Assembly (NCBI GenBank): GCA_000442015.1
Contig: KE561117.1
Location: forward strand, 1 to 64,000
Source of the DNA: Rozella allomycis CSF55
Taxonomy: Eukaryota
DNA length: 64,000 bases
Direction: 5' to 3'
Below are positions 3,001 to 39,597 of the stretch, piece by piece (positions within the stretch are counted from its first letter, which is position 1; the number at the start of each line of letters is the position of its first letter). The notes beneath the pieces are model-generated. The model had not been told where the DNA came from and made no database searches. It was given only the letters and a program-made list of their open reading frames with translations. The position numbers were made by a program, and so were the translations under genes.

Positions 3001-6000
3001 TGAAAAGAATATTCCAAGCAGCGACTTTTTTATAGACTCTAATCCGATCATTGCCATTATTTCATCCAGGGCTTCATTTGATTCACCGTGTCTCTTCTTT
3101 TCATTATCCCAGATTTCATTGGCTGACTTTTTCTTTTCATCTGGTGAAATATACTCAATAAAACTCTTGGAAATAGCATCCAACAATCCATCCATATGAC
3201 TTGTTAGCTCTTTTGCATATTCTGGAACAAACCCTTGAATCTTTGATAGTTTAGAAAATAAGGCAATCAAACCAAAACAATCCTTTAACAAAGTTTTATC
3301 ATCTTTCATCACAAATGATTTCACAAATACAACGCAACAACAATACAATTCAATAAATGACATTTTGCCCATTTTTTCTGCAAGATTAATATTGTTAATT
3401 AATGTGAAATCATCTACAATAGCCCTATTAGCCAATCTCATAATTTCAAGGTATGGTTGGACGCATTGTTCATCCTTTAGACTATCAAGCAACTTTATTG
3501 AAGATACTTTTTTGCAAAACTTTATTATCGAGGGCTTTAAAATTTCTTCAGCTTTTTGTGGCAATTTTACATAATTTTGATCAACGCCTTGCCATGTGAA
3601 AGGATTCCCTTTATCCAAAAGGGCAATAATCTTGTTCCAATCTTTCGCTTTGATTGCTTTTATCAATTCTTTTGTATCCGAATCTTTTTCATCGTCTTGT
3701 AAAGATGAAGATTTCTTATTGTGATCTTTGCTTTCACCTTTCTTGTTTCCTTCAGAAGATAATGCTGGTGTACAACTAGATGAATTATCACTAGTTTTAT
3801 TCGCGTCCGTTTTCTGATCTCTTTGTTGATCTTTTTGTTGAACATTTTGCTGATGATTTTTGCCTATCAAAAGTAAAGGTAAATTTTACTATTTCCATCT
3901 TTAATAGAATTCTTAAGATTCTCAATTTTGTTTTCGTATTGTTTTACAAGATTTTGAATATTCTCCTTTTCCTTGTCCTGAATTTCCATATTCTTCATCT
4001 TATTTTGGGTGTCAAGTAGAGATTTTTCAAGTTCAATTTGCTTCTTTTTAAGTCTTAGCTTACTCAATTCATCAATCTGCGAATTTTCCTTTTTAGCTTT
4101 TTCCAATTCTTCAGCCGCCAACTCAATGTCATATTCAATTTCCAACTTTTCTTTGAGAGCTTTGATTTCATTTTGTTTCTTTTTATTTTGTATTTCCAAC
4201 TCTTTAGCGCAAAACTCGCACTTTGGATCATTATCGCCGCACTTGTACTGATACTTGTGGCCCTTGGCACATTGATCAAAAATTAAAACTGCACACACAA
4301 CATTTACATGGTCAATTGAAGGATGACACTTTAATGGGCAATTATGACCACATGGCAAAATATCACCGCAGTCTTTGAAACAACCGCCATTTGGAGGAAA
4401 ATCTTTTGCAGACGTAACTTGCATATAAAAATTTGGATGTTTTTCGCATGCCAAAGGAAATCCCTTAAAAATACACCCTTCTTTTTGTAATTTATCAAAA
4501 AGCTTTCTCCATATTTCACTTTTGCCAAATGTATTCATGTTTCCTATCAATACCAAACCATTTCTTGCTCGAGAAAGCAAAACATTCACTCTTTGCGGTT
4601 CTTTCATGAACCCAATACTGCATTCGTCATTGCTTCTTGTTAAACTAGCGATTACAATATCAGCTTCTTCTCCCTGGTAGTTATCAATAGTTGCTAAATT
4701 CACTTTTCTTTGGTTTTCAGATAAAGTAACATCCGTTATACCACTCTTATTTATATCCTCCGTATCTAATTCTCCCAATTGGACATTATAGAACTTTGAA
4801 ACTGCTTTTTTCAAATCGACCAATTGTGCCAGGTATGGTGTTAAAATAACCATGTCATTCTTTGTGTAGCCTTGATTGAAAAAGTGCTTCACAATCGCTG
4901 TGACCAATTCGACTTCAAAGGGATTTCTCTTTGACAAACTACACTCTGACTTGTTCATAATAGTCTCATCTTCATTTTCTAAATGCTCATGATGAATAAA
5001 AACAATCGGCTTCTGCATTCCTCTTATGGGTGGCCTATTAAGTGTGGACTCGTGATCCTTTAACTCTGGATAAGTTAAAAGTCTGACACATTCAGATATC
5101 TCTGGTCTCATCCGATGCTGGGTATCCAAACACACATGAGGATAATCATTCGATACCAATCTCTCAAACAATGACTTGTTGAGATCATGGCCGTTACCAG
5201 ACTCGACACTTAAATTGTATAAATTAATTTTTGGTCTTAATTGTTTATGATCTCCTATCATAATGATCTTTTAAAATTCTGGAATCTTTGTTACCTGCTT
5301 ACATGATTTCGAAATGCTAGTAACGACATGGGACTCAAGAACCTCGCCTGCTTCCTCCAATATCAACACATTAGCATCAAAAGCCTCCACAAGATGAGAA
5401 TTCTTAGCAGCACCGGTTGTAGTACATCCCATAATTCTTTTGCTTCTTATTTCTCGAATATCACTTTCACCGCACAACTCTTTTAACATTTCAATCGTGT
5501 TATTATATTCCAAAATCTTATTCCCAAAATCCAATTCAAATTCATTGTTGATTTCGTTAATCCAAGAACGCAACAATTCCAGGCGTTTTTCTCCATTCAT
5601 ACACCAAACCTTCATTGTTTCCATTGACATTTCGTCACTATAAAATTTATACACTTCATCTAAGCTCATTCCATCAATCCAATATTCCCACAAGTGTCTG
5701 CCGTTTAATTTTTTTCCGTCTTTTGCGATCATCATGAAATTGCCATTCCCAACATCTGGCTCCTTGAAAACATCACTTATTTCTGGGTTAACGATATTTA
5801 AATAATTTTTAAAGGTCCAGTATTGATTCTTAGCATTTTTTTCGGTCAAGTTAATATGTCTTGAATACTTCGAACTAACTGCGTTTTCTTGACTATCCGA
5901 AAGGCTCATTAAAGATGCGTATTGCCTGTTGAAACTGGGATCATAAGATTTCCGATTACCTAGTATTTAATGAAAATTATTGTAATTACGTGACTCAAAA

Positions 6001-7780: not shown

Positions 7781-7862
7781 GACACAGTCGCATAGTGGCT
7801 ATTGCGTTGGCCTGCTAAGCCAATTCCCTCTGGGAGCGAGAGTTCGAATCTCTCCTGTGTCG
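7781..7862 (+). tRNA. tRNA-Ser (anticodon GCT)
   Basis: Acceptor stem GACACAG/CTGTGTC plus G discriminator; anticodon arm TTGGC-CTGCTAA-GCCAA; long variable arm TCCC-TCT-GGGA; T arm GAGAG-TTCGAAT-CTCTC; followed by a T8 Pol III terminator. Confidence 0.96.
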
Positions 7863-20849: not shown

Positions 20850-20995
20850 GAAGTCTTCTTACCATGACTACTGTCAACATTCGTGTATGGAGTAATCTGT
20901 ATACGAAGGTTGTTAAAGACTGCGGAACCGCCCGAGGTCGGCAACGAAGCAGGGTAACGTGGCGCGGCTGTTGGTGGTGAGATCGAGATTTCATT
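20850..20995 (+). ncRNA. Signal recognition particle RNA (S domain; 5' end uncertain)
   Basis: Helix 8 CCCGAGGTCG-GCAA-CGAAGCAGGG (20931-54; compare human CCCAGGUCGGAAACGGAGCAGG). Helix 6 TTCGTGTATGGA-GTAA-TCTGTATACGAA. Helix 5 GAAGTCT/AGATTTC and TCTTACCA/TGGTGAGA. T6 terminator at 20994. Confidence 0.85.
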
Positions 20996-21670: not shown

Positions 21671-22608
21671 TCAGCGATATCCATTTCTTCAACTTCTTCG
21701 TTATCGTTTTCTTCTAATACACCCATAGTCTCTATTTCACTTTTCATTTCATTTATTTGTGATAACATTGCCGGGTCTTCTATTTGTAGTTTTTCAATTA
21801 ACTAGTCAATCTAAAAATTGTAAATTACAACTAATGTTTGCTCTAAACAATCATACGATTCTATGTAATCCTTTTTCAGATAATAGACCCATCCAAACAG
21901 AAACCAAACTTCCACATCTTCATCATTTTCCAATTGGTTCATTGCTAGAATAGTTAGGGATTCGGTGAAAAACTCTGTTTCCATTAATCTTTTAGCCATA
22001 TTTGTCCTTATTTCGTATGTTGGCCATGTTTCAGGCTTATTCGCATCAACTTTAGAATAAGCCTTTTGAATTGCTTCTTTCGCTTCGTCATTTCTAAGCT
22101 GGCAAATCCTCAGTGAACATTTTGTAACTAAAATTTCGACATTATTTGGGTCGATTGACTCTGCTTCATTGACATACGACTCGCATGCCGCTTCTGCGTT
22201 TTCTTCTTCGCATAGATCGCTCAAGTACAGTTCTGCCATGGCACATAAAATAGAAACCTTTTTTTCTTTGACATTTAAATCTTGTGGATTTAAGAGTTCA
22301 TAAGCTTTTTGATAGCAGTTTAAGGAGTCCATTCCTTCCACTAGTTGTCCAAGAAACAAAAATGTTGTCGAAGAAGCATCACTCCTATTCATATTTTGAG
22401 TAAATACCTTTTATTAAGGCAAGATGGTTATTACATTTAGCGCCTTTTCGTGTTCATTATTTTCTACAAGCATAACACCATACAACTCTAAAATATCTAT
22501 ATCGTTAGGAAATATTTCCAGCGCTTCTTGAGTTGTTTTTAAAGCGTTTTCATAATCATCTTGATCAACAAAATCTGAAACTCTTTTCTTGAAATCTTCT
22601 TTAGACAT
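21671..22608 (-). CDS. ACL4: TPR protein, assembly chaperone of Rpl4 (Acl4-like)
   Basis: LFLGQLVEGMDSLNCYQKA, ILCAMAELYLSDLCEEENAEAACESY, DDEDVEVWFLFGW-like motif, acidic tail. Confidence 0.8.
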
Positions 22609-26782: not shown

Positions 26783-28561
26783 ATGGATGACGCTTCTACC
26801 ATTTCAATTCAGTCCAACAATATTATCGGTAATTTTTAAATCAATTCTTTTAAAGAGAAAACAAAATCAATTTTTAAAAGATTCAGCAAAGACAGTAGAC
26901 AAGCAAGTCAAACTGTCAAGTAAACAAAATATGTTCTTTCAAGTAGTGAGCAGGAAATATCTGAAGAAATATCAAGAGAACAAAATAATGAATACTCTAT
27001 AGAGACACATGAGAAATCCGCTGCAGCTAAGATCTATTTTGAACAGTACTTTGATTCTTTATCCAAAAACCCTCTTCAAAGATACAAAAGACGAGTCATT
27101 TTTGAAAAAGAATTAGAAAACATGAATATTCCTGATTCAGAGAAACAGCAAGTTAGACAATCATGGTTGAAACAAGAGTCCGACAATATGAGGATGCTTC
27201 GTCAAAAAATAGCGGTTGATTCGTTTGAAGTTATAAAAATACTTGGAAAGGGGGCATTTGGCGTTGTTAAACTCGTTAAAGAAAAAGATACCGGCGAATT
27301 ATTCGCCATGAAAATCATAAGGAAAGATGTGGCACTAAAAAAGAGACAAGAAGGGCATGTGCGGGCCGAGAGAGATTTTCTTATTGAAGCTAGCGAAAGT
27401 TCAAAGTGGATTGTCAAATTGGTTTATTCTTTCCAAGATAACAACAATTTATACATGGTCATGGAATATATGCCGGTAATGAAAATTAATAATTAATTAC
27501 AGGGCGGAGATCTGCTTACGTTACTCATAAGACAAGATGTGCTTAACGAAGACATGGCCAAATTTTATGCCGCGGAAATGGTTTGTGCAATCGCTGAAGC
27601 TCATCAACTTGGCTACATACATAGAGACGTTAAACCAGATAATTTCCTTTTCGAAGAATCCGGACATTTGAAATTAAGTGATTTCGGTTTGGCTACAAAT
27701 TTCCATTGGACGCACGATGCTGCATTTTATGATTTGCATCGATCCAAAACTCAAACAGTACTTCAAAGAAATCAATCAAATGCACAGATTGAAGATTCCA
27801 CTAATTCTATGGCTGAATCGTCCGCAGAGGCTCACATGCTAGTTCCACCATCCAAAGATAAGATTCTTGATTGGAGAGACAGACACAGAAAACAGCAAGC
27901 TTACTCGATCGTAGGAACAAATAATTACATGGCAGTAGAAGTTATACAAGGAAAGGACGGTTACGATGAACTTTGTGATTGGTGGAGTTTCGGTGTCATC
28001 CTGTATGAAATGCTGTATGGCTTTCCCCCATTTTGCTCTTCCTCTAAGCACAACACCAAATTAAAAATTCTTAGATGGAAGCAGACATTAAAATTTCCAG
28101 ATGAACCGGTCGTTAGTAATGAAGCCAAAGACTTGATAGAAAAATTACTTTGTGACCCAGAGAGTCGCCTAGGACGCGTCAAAAAGGAAAACGATGAGAA
28201 TGTACAAGACAACGAAGTACTTGAAGCCCGAGAAGATATAGAGCAAATTAAGGCACATCCGTTTTTTGCTGAAATTGACTGGGAAAACATTCGAACCAAG
28301 AGGCCGCCATTTGTTCCAGACCTGAAATCCAGCACTGATACAAGTTATTTTGACGAAGTCCAAGAATCCAACTCGCATTCTTCATCGCAAGGATTAAATG
28401 AGGAAACCTTAACGGAAGAAGACAAAAAGGTGATGGAGCTTCGAAAAGAGTTTGCGTTTGTAGGATTCACATTTCGAGGATCACACCGATTGCGACCCAG
28501 ATATTTGAAGCACAAGCAAAACGAAGAGGACGCTGCATCATCTGCAGTTGATGATGTCTGA
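26783..28561 (+). CDS. NDR/LATS-family kinase (Cbk1-like)
   Basis: N-terminal regulatory segment (KQESDNMRMLRQK), GKGAFGVV, HVRAERDFL, HRDVKPDNFL, long activation insert, AYSIVGTNNYMA, FAFVGFTF. Confidence 0.92.
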
Positions 28562-28608
28562 TGATAAACTATACTTTAATAAAAATTAGGTTTGTGATTA
28601 TTAATTTG

Positions 28609-31600
28609 ATGCATTCATTATTTAGCCAAAATGTTTCAAAGCCGAGAAATAAGAAGCGAGATGGTAACCTAGCGTACCGTGGTTATTGCATGGTTCCTCC
28701 GCCACAAATACAGACGACGGTATCTCAGAATAGCGATAGTTTTATCAAAAAAATTAAAAAGAGAATATATAACTGGATTAATGGCGTAAGTAATCATTCG
28801 TTGCAGCTGTCGCCTTCTGTGAGACGAAAATTCCCACGACAATCAGTGAATTCGCAAGAATCGAGGAAGGTGTATTGCAATGTGCCTGTGCAGAGAAGTG
28901 TATTGGAGAAGAATCGGTATTGCTCGAATGAGATAAAGACAACAAAGTATACAGTGTGGACCTTTCTGCCCAAGAATATGTTTGAGCAATTTAGAAGAGT
29001 TGCTAATTTTTATTTCTTGTTTATGATTGTGTTGCAGGCGATACCTGAATTGCACACGACAGATATAATATTTGCTGCGGCGCCAATAGTGATAATAGTG
29101 TTGATTACTGCCGCCAAGGATGGATTTGAAGATTACAAGAGACATAAATCTGATAATACTGTGAACAATGAGACTGTTTTGGTGTTGAATAACTGGAAGA
29201 ATGTGAATGAGCTTAATGAAAGGCATCCGTCAGCGGAAGAGATTACTTTGAAAAATAGTGAACAGGATGAAGATAAAAATGCAAGTAATGGGGCTGGATG
29301 GCGAAAGATTTTTTGGAAGGAAATTAAAGTTGGTGATATTTTGAGATTAGAAAACAATTATGCGATACCAGCAGATTTGATAATTTTATCGACAACCGAG
29401 CCAGATTCAGTTTGTTATGTGGAGACTAAAAATCTTGATGGAGAAACTAATTTGAAGATTAGAAGAGGGCCATCTGAACTGACGTGGTTGAAAACTGATC
29501 AAGATTGCAGGAAATTTAAATGTACTGTGGAATCTGAGGCCGTTACTAGCAATTTGTATATGTACAATGGAAGGATAAATGTGATTAATGAGGAAGAAAA
29601 GACTACGGTTATTCCAGTGAATATTAACAATTTGTTGTTGAGGGGGTGCTTTCTGCGAAATACCAGTCATATAATTGGAATAGTTGTTTCAACTGGCGTG
29701 GATACTAAATTGATGTTGAATTCTGGACCGACGCCATCCAAGAGGAGTAAAATAGATAGAATGTTGAATCCCCAGGTAAAAAGATGATTGTAATATTTTT
29801 GTGGTTGTTATGAATTTTTTATTGCTTTTTGTGTTGAGTTTTGTTTGTGCGATTAATTATGGCTTATTCACTGCGAATTTTACCGCCAATGGAAATCCAT
29901 TTTTACCGAATGATGTCACTAATTCTGGTAGAAATCAAAATGGAATAAAAGATAGGAAAAAGTCCATATTATATCGGATTTTTGACATTTTGGTCTAGTT
30001 TGATATTATTTCAGAATATAATACCGATTTCGTTGTATTTAGCGTTAGAGATTTGTAAAACTGTTCAAGTATGGTAGAATTGAAGATAACAAAGGCATTT
30101 TTTATATTTTCGGATGTTGAAATGTACCATGAGGGGACTGATTCACCGTGTACGCCCCGATCGTGGACATTGTCTGATGATTTGGGACAGATTGAATATA
30201 TATTTTCAGACAAGGTAAGTGTATTGATGATTTAATATGAGACTGGAACGCTGACTAGAAATGTGATGGAGCTGAAAAAGATATCTGTTGCTGGGGCTAT
30301 TTATGGGTTTACTGAGAATGATTTGGAGAAACCGATTAGAAGGTTTAATTCGAGTGAGAATGCAGAAGAGGAGGAGAATTTTGCTGATTTGGATGCAATT
30401 AGAAAGAAGATGATGAAGGACATGACGATATTGTTGAAGGGGAAGAATGTGAGTGTTGAGCAAAGTTTTGTTGATCCATTTTTGTTTTCACACTTGTTGA
30501 ATATTCCAGAACAGTCTAGAAACATTATAGACTTTTTTAGAATCTTGTCGGTTTGTCATACAGTGTTATCGCAGAAGCCGAATTGTAGTACACAAATTTC
30601 AGGAGATGACATTGCGGATACGAAATATTCAGAAATAATTTATAAAGCGCAGTCGCCTGATGAAGCTGCGCTTGTTTCTGCGTCTAGAAATTTAGGGTTT
30701 TCATTTTTGTATCGTGAGAATGATTTTTTGTATATTGATTTGCTTGGAAAGATTGAGAAATATAAAATATTGAATGTTTTGGAATTTAATAGTTCAAGAA
30801 AGAGAATGTCTGTTATTGTTCAACGAATGACTGGTGAAATTTTGTTGTATTGCAAGGGTGCTGATAGTGTGATTTATGAAAGATTAGCAAAAATACAAAA
30901 AGAATTGGAATCTGAAACATTGATTCATTTAGAATCATTTGCACAAGAAGGTAAAGAAAGATTGTTGGGGATTTAAAGGATTGAGAACACTTTGTTTGGC
31001 TTATAGAGTGATTGATGCAGACGAATATGAATCATGGTCTTTGCGTTACAGTGAAGCGTCGAGTAGTTTGAAAGAAAGAGAAATTTTGATTGATAAAATT
31101 GCTTCAGAGATTGAAAATAATTTGATTCTTGTGGGAGCGACAGCCATTGAAGATAAATTGCAAGAAGGTGTCCCTGAAACAATTGAATTGCTGGGGAGAG
31201 CGGGAATGAAAATTTGGGTTTTGACGGGCGATAAAATGGAGACTGCGATTAACATTGGTTTCTCTTGCAATCTTCTAAGAAGAGACATGCTTTTATTAGT
31301 AATCAAAGGTAACAAAGGCTTTACATATATTATTTAGGTAACTTGCATTGTTAAGTTTGAACTAGGTAATCTTGATTGTCTCTATTTATGAATAGGTAAT
31401 CTTAAATCCTCTATCTATAAATAGGTAATCTTTAATCCTCTATCTATAAATAGGTTCCGATGCAGCTTCAACAGAAAAACAAATTAAAGACGCCCTAGAT
31501 CAGGTTTGGGGTTCAGATTCAAATGACGCAAGAGGAAGACTTTTAAGCGCCGCTGAAAATGCAGGGGTCTCCTTTGGAAAGCAAAATGGAAAAAATTTGA

Positions 31601-33237
31601 AAGATTTACAAACTGCTTTAATAATTGATGGCCATTCATTAAAATTTGCTCTAGAACCCTCGCTAAGAAATTTATTATTAGAATTAGGCTGTAAATGCAA
31701 AGCGGTAATTTGTTGTCGCGTTTCTCCTCTACAAAAAGCCCAAGTAGTTGAACTAGTCAAACATGGTAAAGGCTCTATGACTTTGGCTATTGGCGATGGC
31801 GCTAACGATGTCTCCATGATTCAAGCTGCTGACATTGGCGTTGGAATAGCTGGTGAAGAAGGTGTTCAAGCTACAATGGCAAGTGATTACTCCATCGCTC
31901 AATTCCGCTATCTTCAAAGACTTTTACTTGTTCACGGCAGATGGTCCTATTTAAGAATATCTGGCATGATCCTCAATTCCTTCTTTAAAAATACAATCCT
32001 CACTCTGTGTGCCTTTTGGTACCAATTCTACTGTGGATTCTCTGCTGAAACCCCTTACGATTTTCTTTACATTTTATACTACAATTTATTCTACGCTAAT
32101 TTACCCACATTGTTCCTTGGCATGTTTGATCAAGACATCAATCACACCTTTTGTCTCAAAGTTCCCCAATTATACCAAAGAGGTATCAAACAACAAGTTT
32201 TCACGTTTCTCCATTTCATTTTATACAATTTTGATGGCATCTTTCAATCCTTAATGGCTTACTTCATTCCAATGGTCGCTTTCGTTGATACCCCTCTTCT
32301 ACCAGGGTATGGCGACGACTTTAATTCTTTCGGTTCAACTGTCGCTATAGCCACCATCTGTCTTGCTAATTTCTATTGTGGTATCAATTTTTACAGCATT
32401 CATTGGTTAACCATCGCTGGAATATTCATCGGTATTCTCTTGACTTTCTTGTTCGCTGGGATTAGTAGCATTTTCCCAGACGAAAGTCTTTACGGCTCAA
32501 TCCTAATTCTTTTAAGACAACCCATTTTCTATTTTACATTTCTAATCACTACAGTTATTTCTTTAGCTCCAAGAATCATTCTTCACTACATTCAAGTAAT
32601 TCTTTATCCATCAGATCTCGACATTGTAAGAGAAATTCAAGTTTTCAATCTTCAACCGGCTTCTCTTTTTGAAGCGGCTAAAAGAAGACCCTCAATCAAA
32701 CTGCTAGAAGACAATATCATATCAATACCAGAAAAGTCATTCGTTAAACCATTTGTCCAAACTGAAACAATCTCTACTTCATTTACAGATATCCATGACT
32801 TGTACAAGATTGAAGAAAATATTCCAACTATTAAAAGAATCCCCAAAGCCTTCAATTTCGCTCTGAAACTGAGAACTTTGAAAAATGCGAGCTCTATTTT
32901 TTATATGCGCACAGGCCAGTTTGAAAAACTAAGAGGATTCGGGTTCTCCCAAGAAGAAGGAATGAAAGATATCGTCACGGGGAAAGCATTCGGTGTCTCT
33001 GTCAGCGCTAGAAAAGACCTCGATCTGCCTAGAATACCTAAAGCTGCCATCAAAGAAGATATTCGGTATCCAAGAACTTTATACATTCCTACACAGTCAA
33101 CTGGACGCCAGAGAGATCAGTCCTTTTCATTGTCACAGAATTCACATTCCAGGCGATCTAGCTATCTCACTCCGCCAAGACTATCTAAAACTATTTCAAA
33201 AGAAAAAATAAGACAACATGATCAAAAGAAACAATAA
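28609..33237 (+). CDS. P4-type ATPase phospholipid flippase (Dnf1/Drs2-like)
   Basis: [85 protein letters not shown]. Confidence 0.97.
31309..31453 (+). repeat. Intronic array of five abutting GT..AG units (29, 28, 30, 29, 29 nt)
   Basis: Units at 31309-37, 31338-65, 31366-95, 31396-424 and 31425-453 all start GTAA and end TAG. The last two differ by one base. Removing all five gives in-frame ...LVIKG|SDAAS.... Confidence 0.9.
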
Positions 33238-33296
33238 ACATCCAACCGTAAAATAAATCAATCTTTTTGTTCATCCGCTTTATTACTTTTTGTTTA

Positions 33297-33561
33297 TTAA
33301 TCGAATCTAAACCCTCTTCCTTGGTGTTACTATCGGTGCTACCTGCGCAAGATACGTCAACGCCCATCTATCAAAATTGCTCCTATTTCTTACGGGATAT
33401 ACAGACAAACCAATGTAAGCACAATAGAAACTTGGTATACTCTAAGTCTAGCCACCAAATCAAACTTACAGTTGATCAGGCCCTTTCTTGGGTAATCTGA
33501 CACCAACAAAACAAAGAACTAGCACTACTAGCCCGACTATCAATACAGCCAGCGCGCCCAT
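33297..33561 (-). CDS. VMA9: V-type ATPase V0 subunit e
   Basis: Three exons absent from the ORF track: MGALAVLIVGLVVLVLCFVGVRLPKKGPDQL|VYQVSIVLTLVCLYIP|WALTYLAQVAPIVTPRRGFRFD. Confidence 0.88.
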
Positions 33562-33576
33562 TATGAAATTTCGCAA

Positions 33577-34428
33577 ATGACTAGTTTTGATTCAAAAGCC
33601 TTAAACCGCCGTGTTTGGCTAGTCAAGGTACATTTAAAATAAAACAATAAAAAGCTTCCAAAATCTCTTGCCGAAAAATGGAATACACTCCCTCAGAATA
33701 ACGTCGAGCTGGGAACTCTGCGGTTTGGAGACACAAAGTATTGTCTTTGCTCTCATATTATAGAATGGACGGCTCACAAGATATTTCTCTGACACTATCA
33801 AATATTCCGCAGCATGAAGGGATCCCAAAAGAGTTTTCTTTTGAGAATGGAAGCAGAAAGGATATTAATATGCATGTATTGAGGCTGGATGATCAGGGAA
33901 GTATGGATTTGATTTGTGCGGTATAGATCCGATCGGCATTCAGGGAGTTATTGATCGAGAGATTGTGCTGAAACCTTCAAGGACGCAAGATGTTGCGTCG
34001 ATTTTGAAAAGAGAAACTTTGGAGGCGATGAAACCGAAAAGAAAGATCGTTGAAGTTGATGTTGTTAAAGACAAGGTTGGTTTTGTGAAACCAATTGCTT
34101 ACACTCAGGATTACCTTAATGTACGCCTATAATTCGGTGTTTAGTGTAGAAAAAGAAACAATTGCAAGAAGGAAAAAGAGACAGATTGCCAAAGGAACAT
34201 GTTTTGAATCAACTGTTTAAGGCATTTGAGAAGCATCCATATTGGGCTTTGAAGGACCTTGTACGAACGACTAACCAGCCAGTCGTAAATTCTTATTAAG
34301 CCCTCTAATAGACTTACATTAAAGAACTTTTAAATGAAATTTGTGTTATAAACTCCAGAGGGCCATATAAAAACCTGTATCAATTAAGACAGGATTTCAC
34401 TCAACGCACTAGCATGGATATAGATTAA
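33577..34428 (+). CDS. TFG2: Transcription factor TFIIF subunit beta (RAP30)
   Basis: RRVWLVK|LPKSLAEKW, LFKAFEKHPYWALKDLVRTTNQPV, LNEICVINSRGPYKNLYQLR. Confidence 0.9.
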
Positions 34429-34493
34429 ATAAATTATAAATGAATAGTTAAATTGTTAAAAATAATGTTTCTGAAGACACTGTTTATTCAGAC

Positions 34494-35294
34494 TTACAAC
34501 CATTGGAACACTACAGCCAATGCAGTACTGGCGATCAATGAGAGCCCAGTCCATGTTGCTACACTTGAGCCAGAGCTTGATTGCTTGGACGCCCCATCAG
34601 CCTTATAAGTTGAGCCATCGGTAGTGGCAGCGATTTGAAGACACTTGTCCAAAGTAACTAGATTATTCCCGGCGCCCTTTAAGAAGCTAATTATGGATGG
34701 GACAGCCTCTACGCTAGCCATTACAGGTTCATTTTGTACTGAGATGTAACTTGTCTTGAAACCAGCTGATTGGTTGACAGCAGTTTGAAATGTGTTGAGA
34801 ACGTTGGATGCCGTGATATTTGGCATGTAATCCATAGAGTCAAGACTAGCTTCACTAACGACGTAGCCCATAGATTCAAGGACGGATACTGTTTGTGCAG
34901 TATACCCACCAACTGGAAGACGGACAAACTTTGGAGAAAGATTAGTCAATGCCTTAATTTGAGCGGTAGCAGCAGCAAAGTTTGCACGAACATCTGCATC
35001 AGACATCGTCAAGAGGTTCCATGAAGGTTCGGCGCGGATTCCAATGACGTGACCTTCGGCCGCGATGTTTTTGGTTTTCATTTGGAAGACTGGATCCTTA
35101 GTATAGCTGGCTACGATGTGGAAAGTTGCTTTTAACCCACTGTCACGAAGCTTGAGGAGGAGAGAATCCGTATTAGCGCTTGGACCGTTATCAAAGGTCA
35201 AGGCAAAGTCACCGGGTGTTACACATAGCTTTTTGACTTCTGCGTTTACATTGTTTAGGGCTAAAGCGCTGAGAAGAATGGCAAGGAGTTTCAT
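34494..35294 (-). CDS. Secreted, probably GPI-anchored polysaccharide (chitin) deacetylase-like CE4 protein with degenerate active site
   Basis: Signal peptide, FALTFDNGP, KATFHI, GHVIG, VRLPVG, SLDSMDY, LVTLDKCL, Ser-rich linker and hydrophobic C-terminus; intronless. Confidence 0.85.
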   Translation of the reverse strand: MKLLAILLSALALNNVNAEVKKLCVTPGDFALTFDNGPSANTDSLLLKLRDSGLKATFHIVASYTKDPVFQMKTKNIAAEGHVIGIRAEPSWNLLTMSDADVRANFAAATAQIKALTNLSPKFVRLPVGGYTAQTVSVLESMGYVVSEASLDSMDYMPNITASNVLNTFQTAVNQSAGFKTSYISVQNEPVMASVEAVPSIISFLKGAGNNLVTLDKCLQIAATTDGSTYKADGASKQSSSGSSVATWTGLSLIASTALAVVFQWL

Positions 35295-37829: not shown

Positions 37830-39597
37830 ATGGGAAAGCTAAAGAAAAAGGTAAAGACACATGTTTGAATCGAGCAGGGAACATCTGGCGCTGTGGTTAA
37901 TTACATATCTCGTAACAAAGCTATTAGAAAACTTCAAATAACTTTGCCAGAGTTTCGGTAGGAATTTTTTTATTGTATAAAGTTAGCCGTTTGTGTATAT
38001 TGAAAGGAATATATCCTAGAGAACCAAATAATAAAAAGAAACTGACCAAAGGAAGCACAGCACCAACAACGTTTTACTATCTCAAAGATATTCAGTATTT
38101 GCTACATGAGCCAATACTTCAAAAATTTAGAGAACATAAAATATTTTTGAGAAAGTTAAACAGGGCGATTGGAAAAGGGCAAAAAGAAAATGCTGTTAGA
38201 ATACAAGAGATGGCGCCCAAGTACACTTTAGATCACGTCATTAGAGAACGCTACCCAACATTCATTGATGCTGTCAGAGATTTGGATGATGCTTTATGTA
38301 TGATCTATTTGTTTTCAATGTTCCCACAAACTAATGAAGTTGAAGCCGGGGTAGTTGAGAAATGTCAAAGACTCTGCCGTGAATTCGAACACTATATTAT
38401 AAAATCAAGATCTTTGGTTCATTCATTCGTGTCTGTCAAAGGAATTTACTATCAAGCTATGATTCTTGGACAAGCTGTGACTTGGTTGGTGCCATTCGAA
38501 TTTAGTGTGGCTGTTCCTCATGACGTCGACTTTCGTGTGATGATGACATTTTGTGAGTTTTATATTACACTCCTTGGATTTATAAATTTTAAGCTTTACT
38601 CTCAATTGAATCTTGTCTATCCACCACAATTGGACCAAACTGCTTTGGATGCAGAAGGTGGCTTAAGTGCCTATAAAATTGAAGAAAAGGATGCGATAAA
38701 GGAGATGCATCCAACTGCAGATGTGACTTTAAAGAAGAATGAATCTGTGGATCAAAAAGTTATTGATTCTTTAAATGAAAAGTTAAAAGAGATTTCAAAG
38801 GAAGACAAAGCTGATGAATTGAAGGAAAACTTTGAGCACTCTGATGAATTAGTTAACATGAACGAGTTGGAGCAACAATTCTCTGAGCATGAAAAGTTTA
38901 AGAATTTATTCGCTCAAAAAGTATTTTTCATTTCTAGAGAAGCCCCCAGATTATCGCTCGAGTTTATTATTCGTTCGTTTGGAGGCAAAGTTGGTTACGC
39001 TAGTGGTAAAAACTCCATGTTCAAGGAAAATGACCCTCGCATCACACATCATATTGTTGATCGTCCTTTAGAAATGATCCCTACTTTGCATTCTAATCGT
39101 AGTTATGTTCAACCACAATGGATCTATGATTGCATCAATTCAGGTAGACTCTTAGACCCCGGTCTTTATGCCCCAGGAGTTAAACTTCCAGCGCATTTAT
39201 CTCCATTTGAAAAATCAGGAGATTATGTTCCTACTGAAGCAATTCAATTTTTTGCCAGAGAGGAAGAAGCTCAAAACAACGAAGTTGAGAGTACAAATGG
39301 TGAGATGGTAGACGAAAAGAAACCTGAAGAAACAGTTGAAATGACTGTAACAGCCTTTATCATCTATTATTTTAGGAATATCAAGAAGAGTTAGCTAAAG
39401 AAATGAATAAGGTAGTGAAAAAACGCAAGAAGACCTCCAAGGAAGATGAAGAGAAGGAAAGAAAAGAAATGGCTATTGGAATGATGAACAAGAAAGACAA
39501 GAACTTGTACAATAGCATGATGTTTGGAAAACGTAAACGCGCACTACTAGCTTCAAAGTTGAAGGAAAAGAAATTGAAGCTTCAGCAAAAAGAATAA
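37830..39597 (+). CDS. NOP7: Pescadillo/Nop7 (BRCT-containing)
   Basis: YISRNKAIRKLQITLPEFR|RLCILKGIYPREP, ERYPTFIDAVRDLDDAL, YVQPQWIYDCIN, LPAHLSPF. Confidence 0.97.

Follow-up and report, generated by a model that had tools for sequence, protein, structure and literature searches.

A 145-nucleotide intervening sequence in a Rozella allomycis flippase gene that may consist of five ultrashort introns placed end to end

Introduction

It is not settled how very short introns are recognised or why their length varies by only a few nucleotides, and a single locus of Rozella allomycis CSF55, an early-diverging fungal parasite and relative of the microsporidia, raises it in a particular form. The stretch of DNA analysed here, called the window, covers positions 1 to 64,000 of the forward strand of contig KE561117.1 (assembly GCA_000442015.1), where the standard genetic code is used and the G+C content is about 35%. 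At 31309-31453 of the window, within a gene for a P4-ATPase (phospholipid flippase), lies an intervening sequence of 145 nucleotides (nt) which an earlier note had described as an array of five back-to-back introns. Is this array one long intron, or several short ones without any exon between them? We lean towards the latter, in which the 145 nt would be composed of five modules, each a complete ultrashort spliceosomal intron, joined end to end through zero-length exons. The locus would then offer a five-module natural substrate for studying such recognition, placed within an essential-looking gene that is under selection.

Layout of the array

On re-reading the sequence, the 145 nt were found to split without remainder into units of 29, 28, 30, 29 and 29 nt. 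GTAAC opens units 1 and 2, GTAAT opens units 3 to 5 and TAG closes all five, and the four internal junctions all read TAG/GTAA (the slash marks a junction). The exact tiling, the ends and the joints are thereby the same as those noticed earlier. The units are as follows, where the scores are those of the intron model described below.

31309-31337, plus strand: unit 1, 29 nt, GTAACA...TTTAG, interior unlike the other units, 10.3 bits
31338-31365, plus strand: unit 2, 28 nt, GTAACT...ACTAG, 5' half like unit 3 (borderline), 11.0 bits
31366-31395, plus strand: unit 3, 30 nt, GTAATC...AATAG, older copy of the tandem repeat, 11.9 bits
31396-31424, plus strand: unit 4, 29 nt, GTAATC...AATAG, 12.6 bits
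31425-31453, plus strand: unit 5, 29 nt, one mismatch relative to unit 4 and followed by an exon starting with GT, 13.0 bits

By their sequence all five units look like ordinary ultrashort U2-type GT-AG introns, with GTAA..TAG ends and lengths of 28-30 nt. The exon on the 5' side ends in ATC AAA G and the exon on the 3' side begins with GT TCC GAT, giving LLLVIKG/SDAAST across the array. Joining the AAAG of the upstream exon to GTAAC or GTAAT regenerates a 5' site of the local consensus, and the four AG/GT juxtapositions inside the intervening sequence are the sequence hallmark of zero-nucleotide-exon recursive splicing.

Short tandem repeats are prone to mis-assembly and an assembly or sequencing artefact, with the repeat collapsed or expanded, was a concern raised in the earlier note. 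However, gapless single contigs of three other DNA datasets cross the array, namely X3 (30782-32148), X2 (28719-35000) and X7 (29878-32705). These contigs differ from the window in 4, 22 and 8 letters respectively and every one of these differences lies outside 31309-31453. The array is also shorter than typical reads or read pairs. The array is therefore real, and we regard an artefact as having a negligible probability. The contigs show presence only, so that rare length variants are possible.

The host gene

The gene hosting the array was delimited through its homologues, which carry the Pfam domains PF16212, PF00702 and PF13246. Its main parts are listed here.

28555-33237, plus strand: P4-ATPase (phospholipid flippase) gene, identified by Pfam domains of homologues, tblastn, alignment and single-nucleotide polymorphisms (SNPs); the stop codon is at 33235-33237 and 28555 is not a start-codon call
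29928-29955, plus strand: 28-nt ordinary intron (homologue alignment)
30069-30094, plus strand: 26-nt ordinary intron (homologue alignment)
30215-30241, plus strand: 27-nt ordinary intron, splits DK/TGT
30951-30978, plus strand: 28-nt ordinary intron serving as control (tblastn, alignment)
30979-31308, plus strand: exon 5' of the array, ends LLLVIK + G, phase 1
31454-33237, plus strand: exon 3' of the array, GT TCC GAT = G/SDAAST, reaches the stop codon

With all five units taken out, an upstream open frame of 125 codons runs on into a downstream one of 593 codons. Among removals proceeding from 5' to 3' this is the only one that gives long open frames, as a stop codon is met within 4, 7, 8 and 2 codons after the removal of unit 1, units 1-2, units 1-3 and units 1-4 respectively. 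In tblastn with seven homologues, the high-scoring segment pairs flanking the array abut within two residues in five of them (P0001, P0005, P0011, P0014 and P0019); the exceptions are P0009, where the pairs overlap by a few residues, and P0013, where the downstream pair begins later. A MAFFT alignment with five full-length homologues, from Paramicrosporidium, an aphelid, Batrachochytrium, Rhizophagus and Paraphysoderma, is gap-free at IKG/SDA in every case. The in-frame IKG/SDA joint that had been proposed from the removal of all five units is therefore borne out by the open frames and by collinear homologues.

Within the gene, 24 positions distinguish the contigs of the other DNA datasets from the window; 23 are coding and one lies in the intron at 30215-30241. 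Seventeen of the coding SNPs are synonymous and six are non-synonymous, against a synonymous expectation of 21% of the possible changes (P = 1e-7) or 35% for transitions alone (P = 1e-4). The flippase gene is working and under purifying selection, from which it follows that the array has to be removed with sufficient efficiency.

These observations bear on the idea that the array acts as a splicing handicap or attenuator, where inefficient clearing would leave a unit in most transcripts and these would be degraded, so that the array either tunes or lowers flippase expression or is mildly deleterious and drifting. Every partial product meets a stop within at most 8 codons, a series of five reactions at sites that overlap should take longer than a single one, and the same gene holds a second odd interruption, ending in TG. 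However, the coding sequence is clearly under purifying selection, the five units are unchanged in three other datasets that carry SNPs elsewhere, and nothing points to regulation. We consider such a role quite improbable.

Intron lengths in the window and the chance of tiling

Twenty-seven other canonical introns were verified in the window by frame restoration, with those of the flippase gene supported by homology as well; scans that bridge pairs of open reading frames in search of long introns were too noisy and were not used. The lengths were observed to be 26 nt (six introns), 27 nt (six), 28 nt (six), 29 nt (five) and 30 nt (four). They are spread flat over 26-30 nt with no sharp mode, so the earlier description of 29 nt as the modal intron size did not hold, while its description of the array as an outlying long intron did. 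Since sizes are confined to 26-30 nt in all 27 introns, 145 nt is an outlier and a long intervening sequence by the standard of the window. The introns of R. allomycis S23 are likewise described, in the part of the source that concerns them, as about 30 nt long with weak motifs (PMC6349667).

The consensus of the 27 introns comprises GTAA at the 5' end, [T/A]AG at the 3' end and an A/T-rich interior. No fixed branch-point motif was found among them, TTTAA being present in only 10. A position model built from these introns gave 10.3-13.0 bits for the units of the array, compared with 4.3-16.4 bits (median 10.9) for the real introns when each was left out in turn.

A search of both strands of the window for chains of at least three abutting GTA..AG units of 24-32 nt returned this array alone. 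Six two-unit chains were considered as double introns and rejected; two of them lie in or opposite long open reading frames and four leave no long frame after removal. We also noticed two introns on the minus strand, at 5960-5989 and 22408-22434, whose next exons begin with GTAATC and GTATTT so that the borders resemble a ratchet point AG/GTA. Removing the next 25-26 nt at either place loses the frame, and these two are therefore not arrays.

Among 2,000,000 random 57-nt sequences of intron composition starting with GTAA, a two-unit tiling was found in 461, and in 27 when GTAA..TAG ends were asked of the units. The chance of the tiling seen in units 1 and 2 is thus about 1e-5 to 2e-4, and a chance origin of the tiling is excluded.

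Origin of the array

Tandem Repeats Finder reported a repeat at 31363-31455 with a period of 29, 3.2 copies, 89% matches and a score of 135, where the repeat homology starts at the TAG that precedes unit 3 and reaches the GT with which the downstream exon opens. A single mismatch in 29 positions separates units 4 and 5. The alignment of unit 3 with units 4 and 5 scores 10, against a maximum of 7 among the 276 pairs of unrelated window introns; unit 3 differs from units 4 and 5 only in the interior, and its opening 8 nt and closing 4 nt are identical to theirs. These sequences clearly point to units 3-5 as a tandem duplication of a whole intron. Unit 2 scores 3 against unit 3, which falls in the top 5% of the background, and shares with it the 5' segment GTAA(T)CTTG(C)ATTGT; its relationship to the repeat appears borderline. 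Unit 1 showed no similarity to any other unit by pairwise alignment scores. Whole-intron tandem duplication, proposed in the earlier note for the array at large, hence stands for units 3-5, is borderline for unit 2 and shows no trace in unit 1. Its suggestion of selection on every internal splice site would depend on units 1 and 2, of which just unit 2 is even borderline kin to the repeat.

The sequence AGGT is present at both outer borders of the array (AAAG/GTAA and ATAG/GTTC), and TAGGT recurs at the junctions from that of units 2 and 3 onward. An upstream exon ending in AG combined with a downstream exon starting with GT was found at none of the 25 other introns compared. We infer that this rare arrangement of two AGGT sequences one intron length apart is what made an in-register duplication of a whole intron possible. 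As a proposed course of events, an ancestral intron of about 29 nt would have lain between an exon ending in AG and an exon starting with GT, which would give an AGGT direct repeat with a spacing of precisely one intron. Slippage or unequal exchange in the AGGT register would then duplicate the whole intron, and the 29-nt periodicity of the two copies would allow further expansion. Units 3, 4 and 5 would be recent copies and unit 2 is probably an older one.

Alternatively, units 1 and 2 might not be old duplicates at all but separate introns that came to abut through the loss of tiny exons or through the insertion of other introns at AG/GT, with only units 3-5 duplicated. The lack of likeness between unit 1 and units 2-5 fits this, as does the position of the comparison between units 2 and 3 only within the 5% tail. 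Unit 1 moreover scores 9 against the 29-nt intron of the Pescadillo gene at 39347-39375 (plus strand), where the background maximum is 7 among 276 pairs, but this score is not clearly significant given 120 unit-versus-intron comparisons. Saturated divergence of old copies fits the same data, and no residues are missing at the junction in the homologues, so that no lost exon is visible, which argues against separate introns. We consider this alternative somewhat unlikely. The likeness of unit 1 to the intron at 39347-39375 could be a chance match between 29-mers rich in A/T or a vestige of an intron copied from one gene to another.

No further copy of a unit was found at three or fewer mismatches in the 64-kb window, nor any exact-pattern match in metagenome contigs, and nothing therefore suggests a mobile introner. 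A search of the metagenome contigs at the protein level gave no confirmed relative.

Removal of the array

On balance we favour the view that the units are excised one at a time, as in piecewise or recursive splicing. Each unit would be recognised and excised as an ordinary intron, singly and probably in the 5' to 3' direction during transcription. Each excision would recreate an xAG/GTAA junction, and the remainder would thereby stay spliceable. Pairing the 5' site of any unit with the 3' site of the same or any later unit would be productive, while only the fully cleared mRNA would encode the flippase, as the intermediates would all carry early stops. The other introns in the window are 26-30 nt long with little signal beyond GTAA, [T/A]AG and length, and each unit is therefore expected to act as an ordinary intron. 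Under intron definition the nearest sites should pair, and unit 1 is transcribed whole before unit 5 exists. The perfect ends and lengths of units 1 and 2, kept despite unrelated or barely related interiors, suggest that the sites matter. The RNA run X13 gave only pieces of 36-48 nt at less than 95% likeness, which are uninformative on splicing.

The array could instead be removed in a single step, where the 5' site at 31309 pairs with the 3' site at 31453 to release one 145-nt lariat and the internal sites are silent leftovers of duplication. Most eukaryotic spliceosomes easily handle 145 nt, and units 3-5 are young, as units 4 and 5 differ at one of 29 positions, so their intact internal sites need not be used. 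The public gene model P0241 also removes the 145 nt as one intron, though this model is unreliable; it skips conserved segments and fuses a kinase to the flippase, and its annotation was rejected as support for removal in one step. Against a single step stand the confinement of all 27 other canonical introns to 26-30 nt, the perfect ends and length that units 1 and 2 keep around interiors that are unrelated or barely related to the repeat, and the general rule that nearby sites are normally preferred when splicing is co-transcriptional and follows intron definition. An RNA fold acting as a zipper that joins the outer sites was considered and rejected (z = -0.04), so that no RNA structure shortens the effective distance. 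We think single-step excision, the main rival to excision unit by unit, unlikely.

Several points weigh against excision unit by unit and against the array as a set of five introns of common origin. The order and number of splicing steps are predictions from the DNA sequence. Units 3-5 are possibly too young to have lost their sites, so that intact ends do not prove use. Adjacent 29-nt units cannot hold spliceosomes simultaneously, and serial clearing may be slow, which may favour the outer sites. A common origin by duplication may not cover all five units, as unit 1 shows no kinship to the others, and no second array was found within the 64-kb window. A spliceosome limit of about 30 nt would be drawn from 27 introns of one 64-kb window, and longer introns elsewhere are possible. 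The intron model discriminates weakly, as 748 of the 2885 GT..AG segments of 24-32 nt reach 4.3 bits, the lowest score of a real intron. That the model is so weak in turn suggests that specificity lies to a large extent in length.

If the units are removed one by one, the length constraint would act on each splicing event, zero-length exons would work in a minimal-intron fungus related to the microsporidia, and duplication of a whole intron could make an intervening sequence longer while the gene stays intact. A broader and more tentative proposal is that the Rozella spliceosome recognises introns chiefly with a length ruler of about 26-30 nt, so that introns would grow only in whole-intron quanta, through in-register duplication at AG/GT followed by serial clearing across zero-length exons. 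Should this be true, introns would have a way of growing that has not been described before, and the locus would be a natural place to test how introns are defined by length.

Comparison with known splicing systems

Zero-nucleotide-exon recursive splicing at ratchet points was first found in Drosophila (10.1101/006163). In BOT1 of Cryptococcus neoformans, a 375-nt intron is removed as 210 + 165 nt and the recursive event was demonstrated, as given in the part of 10.1101/224170 on this gene; the list of known cases in the earlier note, very long animal introns and ascomycete stwintrons, was incomplete in this respect. The Rozella array resembles these cases in having AG/GT inside the intervening sequence and in the regeneration of a 5' site upon ligation, and more than one reaction would be needed to clear it. 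The described cases are all far longer in absolute terms than the 145-nt array, as they concern long introns, of kilobases in animals and of 210 + 165 nt in C. neoformans, that are split at one or a few sites and backed by RNA data. In contrast, the Rozella array has four junctions spaced 28-30 nt apart, consists of full-size native introns that are partly tandem copies and is known from DNA alone. Recursive splicing at ratchet points also occurs in human.

Fungal stwintrons and complex intervening sequences contain more than one U2-type unit and are removed by consecutive reactions, and small duplications have been proposed as their origin (excerpts of PMC7138796, PMC9024468 and PMC5639578). 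The Rozella array is alike in being a fungal intervening sequence of more than one U2-type intron unit, but its units lie side by side with no nesting, each has been a whole intron from the outset, and they could be removed in any order. A stwintron has an internal intron that interrupts a donor, branch or acceptor element. Here the TAG/GTAA junctions are complete and no splice element is split, so the array is not a stwintron by the definition excerpted from PMC7138796.

Intron creation by tandem genomic duplication across AGGT is a further relative, where exon sequence is duplicated and a new intron arises at a new position (PMC3265369 and PMC4974935, in part). Both processes involve a tandem duplication in which AG/GT provides splice sites in a single mutational step, and the period-29 array with AGGT at its outer borders is a tandem duplication bounded by AG/GT. 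The Rozella case would be the inverse, as an existing intron appears to be duplicated in register and units are added where the intron already stood, without exon sequence in between. An intron body made of duplicated exon sequence was considered and rejected, since what is repeated is the intron, the exons on either side show no duplication and the homologues are collinear.

Genomes with ultrashort introns, such as those of Paramecium, heterotrich ciliates, myxozoans and nucleomorphs, have a very narrow length distribution and weak splice motifs (PMC5014332). Narrow lengths and weak motifs are common to these genomes and to Rozella, whose size class is 26-30 nt. A term search of PMC13644364, PMC12862383 and PMC13685798 found no array of abutting introns, and no description of an array of abutting ultrashort introns was found in searches of an open-access library of papers, supplements not included. 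The kind of element is already known as zero-nucleotide-exon recursive splicing; what is new here is an array of ultrashort introns, for which such a mechanism is plausible.

Other features of the gene and the window

A second unusual interruption was observed in the flippase gene.

29776-29803, plus strand: 28-nt interruption, starts with GTAAAA and ends with TG instead of AG, placed by collinearity with homologues

Removing exactly these 28 nt makes the gene collinear with all five homologues, whereas the sole canonical alternative (37 nt, 29747-29783) deletes a conserved 10-residue segment. The X2 contig that bridges the array has identical letters at 29776-29803. Possibly a non-AG 3' splice site is selected here through its distance, and if introns are indeed defined by a length ruler, the interruption would be a second sign that distance and not AG sets the 3' cut. 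In run X7, several contigs of 62-77 nt with very different depth and 0-4 changed letters were observed over the exon stretch 29826-29907, which hints at local heterogeneity just downstream of the TG-ended 28-nt piece.

The public model P0241 (about 26900-33237, plus strand) fuses an upstream protein kinase with the flippase and matches a Rozella allomycis CSF55 protein at 100%. It skips 29776-30241, by which the DK of DKTGT is lost, together with a 10-residue segment and roughly 1 kb of the membrane domain at the C-terminus. Gene prediction was apparently not tuned to introns of 26-30 nt, and published intron statistics for this genome may therefore be unreliable. The skipped conserved segments also expose how poorly the Rozella genome is handled by standard gene prediction.

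Elsewhere in the window, eight isolated N positions occur at 56077, 57044, 57736, 59914, 60022, 60833, 60934 and 61692, and the Pescadillo homologue is 100% identical to a Rozella allomycis CSF55 protein. Two RNA genes were also noticed.

7781-7862, plus strand: tRNA-Ser(GCT)
20850-20992, plus strand: signal recognition particle RNA (Rfam RF00017, 70.2 bits, just at threshold)

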